From the NCBI GenBank assembly GCA_034722055.1, contig JAYENL010000278.1:1-54791 (forward strand): 54,791 nt of DNA, in the 5' to 3' direction. Made by a program: the position numbers and the translations under genes. The first letter of the stretch is position 1. Each line of letters begins with the position of its first letter. A model generated the notes under the pieces. That model saw only the letters and a list, made by a program, of their open reading frames with translations. It did not search any database and had not been told where the DNA came from. This document shows, in pieces, positions 45,551 through 50,004 of the stretch. Source of the stretch: Armatimonadota bacterium. Its GTDB lineage: Bacteria; Armatimonadota; Zipacnadia; Zipacnadales; UBA5352.

Positions 45551-46192
45551 ATGCTCGATCGCATAGACGAGTTTGCCGACCAGGCCCGGGAGCACCTGGA
45601 GCAGATACACCAGCGCCGGGAGGAGGCCTACACCACCTCGCGCGAGGTGGTGCAGGCGGCCTCGGCCACGATCAAGGCCGTGCACCGCCAGGAGTTCGAT
45701 CGGGCGCGGGAGCAGGTGCGGAAGACCCGCGAGCTGCACGACCGGATGCTGGCGGCGGTGCACGCGAGTCCGGAGATCGGCTACTCGGGCTTCGTGGGCG
45801 ACGCGGCGCGGGAGTACGCCGAGGCGGCGGTGGCTCTCGCGCTCATCGGGGGCAACGATCTGCCGAGCCCCGACGATATCGGCGTGGATCACGCCGACTG
45901 GCTCAATGGGCTGGGGGACGCGGTGGGCGAGCTTCGCCGGCACGTGCTGGACCTCATCCGCCGCGACGAGGTTGAGGAGGCCGAGACCTATCTGCAAATG
46001 ATGGACGAGATCCACCAGACGCTGATGAGCTTCGACTACCCCCAGGCTGTGACCAAGGGCCTCCGCGGCCGCACGGATCAGGCTCGGGGCGCCGTGGAGC
46101 GCACTCGCGGCGACCTGACCAATGCCCTGCGCCAGTCGCGCCTTGAGCGGCGCATGAGGGAGCTGGAGGAGGCGCTGGGGGAGGAGGGGTAG
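45551..46192 (+). CDS. Translin/TRAX family protein
   Basis: All-helical; REE....SR, EYAEA and WL.GLGD.VGELRR motifs typical of prokaryotic translin/TRAX homologs. Confidence 0.85.
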   Translation: MLDRIDEFADQAREHLEQIHQRREEAYTTSREVVQAASATIKAVHRQEFDRAREQVRKTRELHDRMLAAVHASPEIGYSGFVGDAAREYAEAAVALALIGGNDLPSPDDIGVDHADWLNGLGDAVGELRRHVLDLIRRDEVEEAETYLQMMDEIHQTLMSFDYPQAVTKGLRGRTDQARGAVERTRGDLTNALRQSRLERRMRELEEALGEEG

Positions 46193-46336: not shown

Positions 46337-46365
46337 TTGACATGAGAGGCGCCGATCCTTATAAT
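46337..46365 (+). promoter_or_regulatory. Consensus sigma70 promoter for the repeat RNA and NYN gene
   Basis: TTGACA (46337-46342)-N17-TATAAT (46360-46365). Confidence 0.9.
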
Positions 46366-46370
46366 AATCC

Positions 46371-46451
46371 TGTATAAACTCCTCGCCATTGCGTGCAACG
46401 GCGAGTGTATTAGCTCCCCGCGGTTGCGTGCAACCGCGGGTTACTTTTTTT
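46371..46451 (+). ncRNA. Candidate ~80-nt structured RNA of two 35-nt hairpin repeats (putative RNA antitoxin/leader)
   Basis: Repeats 46371-46405 and 46406-46440 are 28/35 identical, share TTGCGTGCAAC, and differ by compensatory stem changes; they begin at the predicted start site and end in a T-tract. Confidence 0.65.
46417..46451 (+). terminator. Intrinsic terminator between promoter and NYN gene
   Basis: CCCGCGGTTG-CGTG-CAACCGCGGG perfect 10-bp stem followed by TTAC and seven T. Confidence 0.75.
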
Positions 46452-46479
46452 GCTGTAGGAACGTGGGGGTCTGATCAAG

Positions 46480-47004
46480 ATGCTCGAATCGAGAGTGATG
46501 GTATTCGTCGATGGCAGCAACTTCTACCACGGTCTGCGGGCAAACGATTTCGACACGCAGGTTGACTTTGGGGCGCTGGGGCGAGAACTTGCCGGCGCCG
46601 GACGGCAGCTCATCCGTGTCTACTACTACAACGTATCGCTTCTTCAAGACGTAGACCCTGATCGCTACGAGCGGCAGCAAGCGTTCTTCTCCGCTGTACG
46701 CGAGCAGCAGCATGTACGCCTGATCTTGGGGCGCCTCGTTCCCCGAGGGGGTACATTCGTGGAGAAGGGCGTTGACACTCAGATCGCGGTGGACATGCTC
46801 AGACACGCGTCCACTGACACCTACGATGTCGCCATTCTCGTCTCAGGGGACGGGGACCTGGCGTGCGCCTGCGAGGCGGTCGGCGAGCTGGGGAAGAACG
46901 TTGAGAACGCGTTCTTCGCGATCGGCAGGTCTCAGCAGTTGCACAACTTCTCAGACGTCTTCCACGAGATCACAGCAGAGCTTCTCGAGCGGTGCAGACC
47001 ATAG
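46480..47004 (+). CDS. NYN domain (LabA/DUF88, PIN-like fold) putative ribonuclease
   Basis: VFVDGSNF, R.YYY, EKGVD..IAVDM, ILVSGDGD, G..VE; acidic catalytic residues intact; more A/T-ending codons than neighbouring genes. Confidence 0.93.
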   Translation: MLESRVMVFVDGSNFYHGLRANDFDTQVDFGALGRELAGAGRQLIRVYYYNVSLLQDVDPDRYERQQAFFSAVREQQHVRLILGRLVPRGGTFVEKGVDTQIAVDMLRHASTDTYDVAILVSGDGDLACACEAVGELGKNVENAFFAIGRSQQLHNFSDVFHEITAELLERCRP

Positions 47005-47178: not shown

Positions 47179-47207
47179 TTGACTTCGGCACTGGGATAGG
47201 CTATCAT
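47179..47207 (+). promoter_or_regulatory. Putative sigma70 promoter of rplU-rpmA-obgE
   Basis: TTGACT-N17-TATCAT. Confidence 0.7.
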
Positions 47208-47295
47208 ACTGATAAGCAGTTGATGGCGCGGGCGTCCGCGCTATCGACTGTTTGTTTTGCCCTTTGTGGTCGGGAGCGTAGTGAGGGAGCAGGTC

Positions 47296-47610
47296 ATGTA
47301 CGCGATAGTGGAGGTCGGCGGCCGGCAGCACATGGTGCAGCCGGATCAGGTCGTGAAAGTGGATCGGCTGGCCAACGAGACCGGCGAGGAGATCGAGCTC
47401 GACAGGGTCCTCGCGATCCGCGACGAGGAGAGCGGGCTGCGTGTGGGCCGGCCGTATCTGGCTAACGCCGCCGTGAAGGCCCGCGTGGTGCAGCAGGGCC
47501 GCGAGCGGAAGATCATCGTCCGGAAGTTCCGGGCCAAGAAGCGCTACCGGCGGAAGATCGGCCACCGGCAGCACTTCACGGCGCTGGAGATCATGGACAT
47601 CGCCGGCTGA
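47296..47610 (+). CDS. rplU: 50S ribosomal protein L21
   Basis: MYAIVE.GG.Q, VG.PY, KF..KK.YRRK.GHRQ.FT. Confidence 0.97.
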   Translation: MYAIVEVGGRQHMVQPDQVVKVDRLANETGEEIELDRVLAIRDEESGLRVGRPYLANAAVKARVVQQGRERKIIVRKFRAKKRYRRKIGHRQHFTALEIMDIAG

Positions 47611-49319: not shown

Positions 49320-49408
49320 TCGCCCCTCCGCCGCCAGGGGCCACCGTTGCTGGTGTCGCCCTTATCTGCTATGCTGAGGTCAGATCACGGCAGGCAGAGG
49401 TGAGACTC

Positions 49409-49648
49409 ATGGCCGATTGGCGCGGACACATCAGCGTGAACCCAAAGGTGATGTTCGGGAAGCCCTGTATCGCGGGAACGCGCATCCCGGTCAGGGACAT
49501 ACTGGACAAGCTGGCGGCTGACATCACTGTTGAGCAGATTCTCCGCGACTATCCTACCATTACTCGCGAGGACGTGATGGCGGCGCTGGCCTACGCTGCG
49601 GATGTCATAGGCTGCGAAGAGGTCATCCCCACGGAGGCTATCGAGTGA
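49409..49648 (+). CDS. DUF433 family antitoxin
   Basis: I.VNPKVMFGKPCIAGTRIPV, IL.DYP.IT.EDV.AAL.YA; GAGGTGA RBS. Confidence 0.93.
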   Translation: MADWRGHISVNPKVMFGKPCIAGTRIPVRDILDKLAADITVEQILRDYPTITREDVMAALAYAADVIGCEEVIPTEAIE

Positions 49649-50004
49649 GGTGGCTGGCAGACGAGAACGTCGAGACCGGCGTCGTTGAGGCCCTTCGCTC
49701 ACTTGGCCATGACGTTGAGTGGGTATCGGAGACCGCGTCCGGGGCTGAGGATGAGGACGTTATCGCTGCAGCAAGGGCGGGGAAGCGCCTTATTCTTACC
49801 AATGCTAAGGACTTCGGGGAGCTCGTCTTTCGGCTTGGACTGGCTGCGGCTGGCATCGTGCTGCTACGGGTCAGCACTCGGGACGCGGACGAGAAGGGGA
49901 GGCACCTCCGCCGCGTCCTTCCCGCAATCACGGATCGCCTCCGAGGCTCTTTCACGGTGGTAACAGACGACGGGGTGCGGGTGCGCGCTCTCGACCATAG
50001 GTGA
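49645..50004 (+). CDS. DUF5615 PIN-like toxin (VapC45-like)
   Basis: RWLADENV, L...GHDV, D..VI..A, ILT..KDFGELVF, GIVLLR; GTGA overlap with DUF433. Confidence 0.9.
   Translation: MRWLADENVETGVVEALRSLGHDVEWVSETASGAEDEDVIAAARAGKRLILTNAKDFGELVFRLGLAAAGIVLLRVSTRDADEKGRHLRRVLPAITDRLRGSFTVVTDDGVRVRALDHR

Follow-up and report, generated by a model that had tools for sequence, protein, structure and literature searches.

A tandem-hairpin RNA family tied to stand-alone NYN ribonuclease genes: a candidate type III-like toxin-antitoxin module

Organization of the locus and the NYN protein

The window analyzed here is the whole 54,791-nt stretch of DNA from an Armatimonadota bacterium, and the features of the locus under study are presented in Table 1. 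A promoter is followed by two directly tandem RNA units (46371-46440), a U-rich tail and the gene for a stand-alone NYN ribonuclease. The promoter called in a first-pass annotation of this DNA was confirmed at every position, and is one of 21 perfect TTGACA-N17-TATAAT sites in the 6.1-Mb genome. The tandem 35-nt repeats were identical at 28/35 positions as had been claimed, with differences at unit positions 6, 8, 13, 17, 18, 30 and 34, and the reported bias of these differences to the stem (5/7) was reproduced. The terminator had also been correctly placed, with a U7 tract after repeat 2 that ends 28 nt before the NYN ATG. Folding z-scores were -2.9 and -3.7 for the two hairpins and -2.9 for the whole 81-mer. 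Each unit had been described as a stem-loop around an invariant TTGCGTGCAA; both units do fold as hairpins, but this sequence is invariant only inside this locus, the loop being variable across homologous elements and the exact TTGCGTGCAA occurring in 2/27. The A.C to G-C difference between the repeats had been taken for a repair of the stem, a view that did not hold, as the unpaired position below the stem top of hairpin 1 recurs in 11/27 elements and is not a one-off.

Table 1. Features of the NYN locus and its flanks (window positions)
Feature	Position	Strand	Remarks
Sigma-70-type promoter, TTGACA-N17-TATAAT	46337..46365	+	12/12 consensus
RNA unit 1, 35 nt	46371..46405	+	Single-stranded leader, then hairpin 46382-46405 with A.C mismatch
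Unit 1 leader AU-N-A	A46374, U46375, A46377	+	A in 27/27, U in 27/27, A in 25/27 homologous elements
RNA unit 2, 35 nt	46406..46440	+	AU-N-A leader 46409-46412; fully paired hairpin 46417-46440, also the terminator stem
U-rich tail	46441..46451	+	U7 at 46445-46451; predicted 3' end of ~80-nt RNA
Candidate G-rich ribosome-binding site	46465..46469	+	10 nt 5' of ATG; putative, read from sequence
Stand-alone NYN (LabA/DUF88, COG1432) PIN-fold ribonuclease, 174 aa	46480..47004	+	PF01936; D11, D99, D124, D126
Translin-like gene, left flank	45551..46192	+	Outside module; adjoins rplU in 4 relatives without module
rplU, right flank	47296..47610	+	Outside module; own promoter 47179-47207

Both the single site in the 6.1-Mb genome that matches the RNA model described below and the single PF01936 match are at this locus. 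The genome contains 321 tandem sites of period 33-39 and at least 80% identity, and two stable hairpins with a T4/A4 flank were found at this locus only. Two other features of the window were observed outside the module. Between the rplU promoter and rplU lies a hairpin followed by a U-rich run (47215-47262), kept, as judged by eye, in the four relatives with an empty site; it has no Rfam match and is possibly an L21/L27 leader. In a lower-GC stretch after an obg-like gene, a DUF433 and DUF5615/PIN-like gene pair (49400-50004) looks like a type II toxin-antitoxin pair.

The NYN protein scored 80.2 bits against PF01936 (curated cut-off 24.2). Its AlphaFold model had a pLDDT of 95, and the best Foldseek matches of the model were 2qip (VPA0982, TM 0.76) and the MARF1 NYN domain. 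The acidic residues reported in the first-pass annotation proved to be intact catalytic aspartates, all four of those listed in Table 1 being present in 31/31 RNA-linked homologs. A profile search returned 432 clusters (50% identity) at E up to 1e-30, and the closest homologs were Armatimonadota records. With respect to other collections, NCBIfam had no model for the protein, PHROG 7929 (unknown function) matched it weakly, a viral fold search returned only further NYN-like proteins, and PLSDB plasmids and GenBank phages contained no close homolog, with best matches at 25-32% identity. In the available portion of PMC5499597 the function of the NYN.COG1432 family is listed as unknown, and one bacterial NYN is described in the accessible text of PMC11346440 as a Mn-dependent non-specific endoribonuclease. 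The PADLOC HEC-09 profile matched the protein at 81 bits. HEC-09 itself, according to the part of 10.1101/2024.01.29.577857 that was accessible, gave no protection against any phage tested; its setting, embedded in an Hma system, was not found here, where oxidoreductase, translin-like and rplU genes form the flanks.

The repeat RNA family and its linkage to NYN genes

Homolog loci were taken from species genomes (3), metagenomes (the best 80 of 540 confirmed, a sample biased to close relatives) and viral sequences (34), the others being from Armatimonadota. A covariance model of the repeat RNA, seeded with 12 loci, was applied to 142 sources (623 kb), where it found the seeds again and 21 held-out loci, two of them close kin of seed loci, with the RNA upstream of the NYN gene in 15 and convergent with it in 6; every one lay beside a NYN gene, and no match away from NYN sites was obtained in the 623 kb up to E = 1. 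Among 95 distinct NYN rows, the RNA was upstream in 27 and downstream on the opposite strand in 6, while no hit was obtained in 46 that had enough flank, and the remaining 16 could not be scored because they were too short.

The first-pass annotation had proposed looking for conserved tandem hairpins and covariation among homologs, and both were found: besides the recovery of held-out loci, 19/19 base pairs had changes on both sides in 27 aligned elements. In this alignment, which was fitted to the RNA model (the unfitted seed alignment gave 17/19 covarying pairs), paired cells made up 94.9%, compared with 70.9% when shuffled and 37-46% with slid partners. Stem sequence turns over while pairing is kept. 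The strand of the RNA is fixed because G-U cells (27) outnumber A-C cells (7). When the window was compared with a homolog sharing 85% protein identity, RNA identity was 87% and identity at four-fold sites 32%. Before each hairpin, at a fixed distance from the stem, is a mostly unpaired AU-N-A, for which the unit 2 counts were 26, 27 and 23 of 27. The unit period was 34-39 nt in 27/27 elements, and the spacing between the top-stem arms ranged from 4 to 15 nt. The last hairpin was more stable than hairpin 1 in 27/27 elements and was followed by at least five T within 10 nt in 21/27; non-terminal hairpins were without a U-tract. A promoter of at least 9/12 was located within 110 nt 5' of the RNA at 26/32 loci with sequence. 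Concerted evolution of the units of a locus was apparent in the leader (0.48 vs 0.36), and the lower stem shows no such signal. Co-divergence of protein and RNA was weak in a Mantel test (rho 0.15; 113/2000 permutations as high). No pseudoknot signal was obtained from loop-linker pairing (2.7 vs 2.8 bp) or loop-leader pairing (3.1 vs 2.9 bp; shuffled loops second), a result to be read alongside the ToxI pseudoknot, which is itself unpredicted from sequence. At one viral-contig locus (L113:2750-2900), two extra, longer palindromic units were seen 5' of a standard two-unit RNA.

In an Rfam search, including the abiF motif that had been suggested for comparison in the first-pass annotation, no family reached its gathering score, either in the window or at the elements of 20 other loci. 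A sub-threshold match to ClpQY_promoter (24.7 vs 42 bits) was rejected as generic hairpin-U-RBS similarity, and short loops and conserved linkers ruled out a guide or spacer role for the RNA. A cross-phylum RNA family tied to NYN RNases is thus real and apparently undescribed; on sequence evidence, its standing as a family absent from Rfam 15 is well supported, whatever its function.

In the six convergent loci, the RNA has 2-3 units and the last hairpin begins at the NYN stop codon, with the model hit overlapping the NYN gene by 7-9 nt in five and by 31 nt in one. Of the five with sequence, four have a promoter scoring 9/12 or better in the direction of the RNA, and the fifth has TTGACA and a poor -10. 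As the convergent RNA lies outside the NYN leader, it is not an attenuator or operator of that NYN. In both layouts it is the RNA's own strand that carries the AU-N-A leaders and the tandem units. Their retention points to a protein ligand, which would most simply be NYN. In quick trees the convergent loci fell in two places, and a single origin was not rejected (AU p 0.084). These loci provide an argument for action in trans beyond that of the first reading, and we regard an action of the RNA on NYN in trans as probable, with antisense action against a read-through NYN mRNA possible at the convergent loci.

Linkage was also examined from the RNA side. When 61 relatives were searched with the RNA model, matches were found in exactly the 4 genomes with a full-length close NYN; these four were in the training set, and the 57 blanks are the informative part. 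In two overlapping sets of WOR-3 genomes (151 and 101), nine sites that had not been used for training were found, spread over 8 genomes; four were directly before an intact NYN, one before a NYN truncated by a transposase-like gene, three without NYN and one weak. The three orphan RNA copies (L205, L206 and L208, oriented position ~1500-1583), two of them near-identical, have kept promoter, two units and tail, and no intact close NYN was found in their genomes, the assemblies of which are incomplete. One more RNA-linked NYN carries an in-frame stop. Antitoxin logic allows the RNA to outlive NYN. When read by eye, the surroundings of the orphan copies in these WOR-3 genomes contained apparent HicB, HEPN and Fic remnants. 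Of ten WOR-3 NYNs the best four had the RNA; the fifth, still close, had none in its locus or genome, and the five distant ones had none nearby. A model-free rule (promoter, two hairpins, U-tail) was satisfied at 15/27 upstream loci, 0/46 RNA-less loci and 6/246 promoter-like sites of the genome. Pattern scans of viral contigs that started from the RNA gave 17 and 6 stretches, among which only two already known loci were real. In nearly all cases there was one RNA site per genome.

Spread of the module, RNA-less homologs and other leader RNAs

The RNA-linked protein clusters include members from Armatimonadota, WOR-3, Aminicenantes, Desulfobacterales, Phycisphaerae, Planctomycetes and Dehalococcoidia; three module loci are on viral contigs, and one RNA-linked locus, with a TATA-like box, had 88% identity to a cluster with a Methanophagales archaeon. 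The left-flank gene was followed in 20 loci, and in six rplU was also visible; the module was between the two genes in two of these (this genus) and absent in four, one of these empty-site relatives carrying it elsewhere. Neighbors of RNA-linked loci vary and include integrases, an IS transposase, R-M genes, a portal gene, a prophage repressor pair and DUF3800. HTH genes were beside two RNA-linked loci only, one being the prophage repressor pair. No recurring partner gene was present among the 76 of 97 flanking ORFs scanned, in agreement with the earlier claim that a cognate protein antitoxin is absent, although length-based ORF picking may miss very small genes. At locus L069:1438-2553, a DUF3800 gene, from a family itself tied to RNA motifs, was observed 438 nt 5' of the NYN-RNA module.

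No RNA model hit was found near 46/79 scorable NYN rows. The RNA-linked proteins are diverse, a grade with 48% mean identity; most of the RNA-less NYNs belong to two tight clades (72-74% mean identity) with Dehalococcoidia members. These clades have all four Asp intact and have lost R89, a residue that 87% of RNA-linked proteins possess; one of the clades precedes a radical SAM gene in 7/7 loci tested. As the RNA-less clades and the close RNA-less WOR-3 NYN indicate, this RNA is not required by every one of these NYNs, and the case against obligatory toxicity rests chiefly on the clades, which may have been domesticated or may have their RNA elsewhere. The RNA model did not match these clades, 22 distant Armatimonadota NYN loci or any of 6 inspected plasmid or phage NYN loci.

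A second array is present in the same genome within the first ~190 bases of contig C281, on the minus strand, and consists of a promoter, three hairpin units and a U-rich tail. The ORF that follows is cut by the contig end after 8 codons, which match the start of a distant NYN subfamily, and this gene comes after R-M-like and nucleotidyltransferase-like ORFs. A similar array of 2-4 units was found in 6/6 other members of this subfamily with upstream sequence (L016, L019, L221-L224). In six aligned sequences of this second RNA, 12/26 pairs covary; it is not matched by the model of the first RNA, and the two families are unrelated. Further distant NYNs had promoter-hairpin-terminator leaders, at 4/21 and 1/6 by a strict rule. 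As a side observation, distant NYN genes at 25-35% identity (L013, L026, L015, L020, L028, L017, L031, L029, L032, L024, L025, L171-L174) often have a promoter, at least one hairpin and a terminator-like hairpin immediately upstream. These leaders fall into several sequence classes, none matching the RNA model or Rfam. Two plasmid NYN loci (L171 and L175) have very long perfect inverted repeats upstream, with arms of ~25-35 bp, which are either real or assembly artefacts.

Interpretation and comparison with known systems

Judged from sequence, the reading which we favor, with modest confidence, is a type III-like toxin-antitoxin system with a PIN-fold NYN toxin. An RNA antitoxin paired with a NYN toxin had been proposed in the first-pass annotation, and that proposal stands in part: a structured, strand-specific repeat RNA tied to NYN, no protein partner and intact Asp residues speak for it, while the many NYN homologs without the RNA nearby speak against it. 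The failure of HEC-09 to protect against phages, the lack of close homologs among PLSDB plasmids and GenBank phages and the weak protein-RNA co-divergence also count against it. That annotation had also considered that homologs might lack the repeats or that the palindromes might be DNA operators, and for the close clade neither is the case.

Under the toxin-antitoxin reading, a strong promoter would produce an ~80-nt RNA with 1-3 units, or perhaps more at one viral locus. Each unit would comprise a single-stranded AU-N-A-(N)3-CC leader and a 9-10 bp hairpin. The last hairpin would end most transcripts, and in the upstream layout NYN would be made only from rare read-through, so that the RNA would be in excess; in the convergent layout the RNA would be a separate gene. 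NYN may recognize the AU-N-A leader and the U-A/U-A/G-C stem top, may cut the RNA between units, and would be inhibited while RNA-bound. Should transcription stop through phage take-over, loss of the element or stress, the RNA would decay and free NYN might then degrade RNA. ToxIN is reportedly activated in this manner, with toxin release upon phage-driven transcription shut-off.

A rather unlikely alternative, to which the RNA-less clades nonetheless lend weight, is that NYN is bound by the RNA in trans and is non-toxic, the RNA tuning a mild RNA-turnover enzyme through a feedback loop or a stable RNP (decoy, sensor or scaffold). The same linkage and covariation data would be expected, the clades persist with an intact active site, one of them before a radical SAM gene (7/7), and HEC-09 showed no defence. 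The pair would then be likened to the unexplained RNA-protein pairs of DUF3800, drum and skipping-rope, in which RNAs on either side and in either orientation of a partner gene have no function assigned in the accessible text of PMC5737381. However, patchy insertion, defence- or prophage-type neighbors and the keeping of the RNA after loss or breakage of NYN fit addiction or defence better, and the RNA-less clades evolve slowly (72-74% vs 48%) and are without R89, as if domesticated.

That the element only limits NYN expression, as an upstream terminator or attenuator and as a downstream antisense or bidirectional terminator with no complex in trans, appears improbable. The last hairpin is terminator-like, and the NYN stop codon is next to or inside the element in 6/6 convergent loci, so that NYN mRNA could run through it. 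Yet a conserved AU-N-A and tandem units are superfluous for termination or antisense pairing, the non-terminal hairpins have no U-tract, and orphan copies retain promoter, two units and tail. Very improbable is a role of the palindromes as DNA, either repressor operators or REP-like hairpins for an HUH/RAYT transposase: a palindromic TTGC..GCAA core does lie beside the promoter, and the recurrent stem mismatch presumably resembles that of REP hairpins, but arm spacing varies from 4 to 15 nt, stem sequence changes while pairing stays, G-U exceeds A-C (27 vs 7), nearly every genome has one site, the AU-N-A leader and U-tail are one-sided, and no regulator or transposase recurs as a neighbor.

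A broader proposal is made only tentatively, and we consider it possible though somewhat doubtful: stand-alone NYN RNases would be a widespread and so far unrecognized third toxin fold under RNA antitoxins, after MazF-like and HEPN, with subfamily-specific tandem-hairpin RNAs, the RNA gene on either side, and the RNA-less clades as domesticated descendants. If this broader proposal is true, a function would be gained for some members of one of the largest uncharacterized PIN families, in bacteria, probably archaea, and prophages. A single PIN-fold example would already suggest a function for the large LabA/DUF88 family, and the 174-aa RNase with its 35-nt RNA would be a minimal pair for structural and biochemical work, in which the two natural layouts and the nearly invariant AU-N-A lend themselves to testing. 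In a literature search that reached few subscription journals, no paper was found that links NYN genes to repeat RNAs or RNA antitoxins.

Among known systems, the module is like the type III systems (ToxIN/AbiQ, CptIN, TenpIN) in having one promoter, tandem repeats, a terminator and an RNase gene, a plan found in the window and 26 other upstream loci and from which the layout of the 6 convergent loci differs. ToxIN family repeats are 34-36 nt in the available part of PMC5086642, compared with 34-39 nt here. The type III toxins have a MazF/Kid/CcdB-like fold, their RNAs form pseudoknots and a separate terminator follows the repeats, whereas here the fold is NYN/PIN, the RNAs are simple hairpins with no pseudoknot signal and the last repeat is the terminator. 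AbiF (RCd22, AbiFr), the nearer parallel for the proposed mechanism, also combines a promoter, a short RNA with two conserved hairpin motifs, a terminator and an RNase gene reached by read-through. According to the accessible text of 10.1101/2025.04.15.648962 and PMC12737573, AbiF RNA acts in cis and in trans through protein binding, and the latter proposes AbiF as the ancestor of Cas13. Unlike AbiF, the toxin here is NYN/PIN and not HEPN (only NYN matches were found), the RNA has no RF03085 match, the last repeat is itself the terminator, and a convergent layout exists. The module is therefore neither ToxIN nor AbiF, having another toxin fold, no pseudoknot seen and no Rfam match.

The DUF3800-I to XI, drum and skipping-rope motifs are similar as terminator-ended RNAs that accompany a single protein family, placed on either flank of its gene and in both orientations, and the DUF3800 domain, as described in the part of PMC5737381 at hand, is like NYN in having several unrelated RNA structures for one protein domain; they differ in the partner protein, and the RNA here has no Rfam match. 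Other NYN.COG1432 proteins, including PADLOC HEC-09 and the CRISPR-associated NYN of Bacteroides fragilis, share domain, fold and catalytic aspartates with this NYN; unlike it, they have no RNA partner described in the accessible portions of PMC5499597, 10.1101/2024.01.29.577857 and PMC11346440, and neither Hma nor CRISPR context is present at this locus. Type II VapBC-like systems differ in having an adjacent protein antitoxin gene, no recurring counterpart of which was found among the 76 flanking ORFs scanned. Few protein folds are known among RNA-neutralized toxins, and a toxin with a PIN fold would broaden this group.
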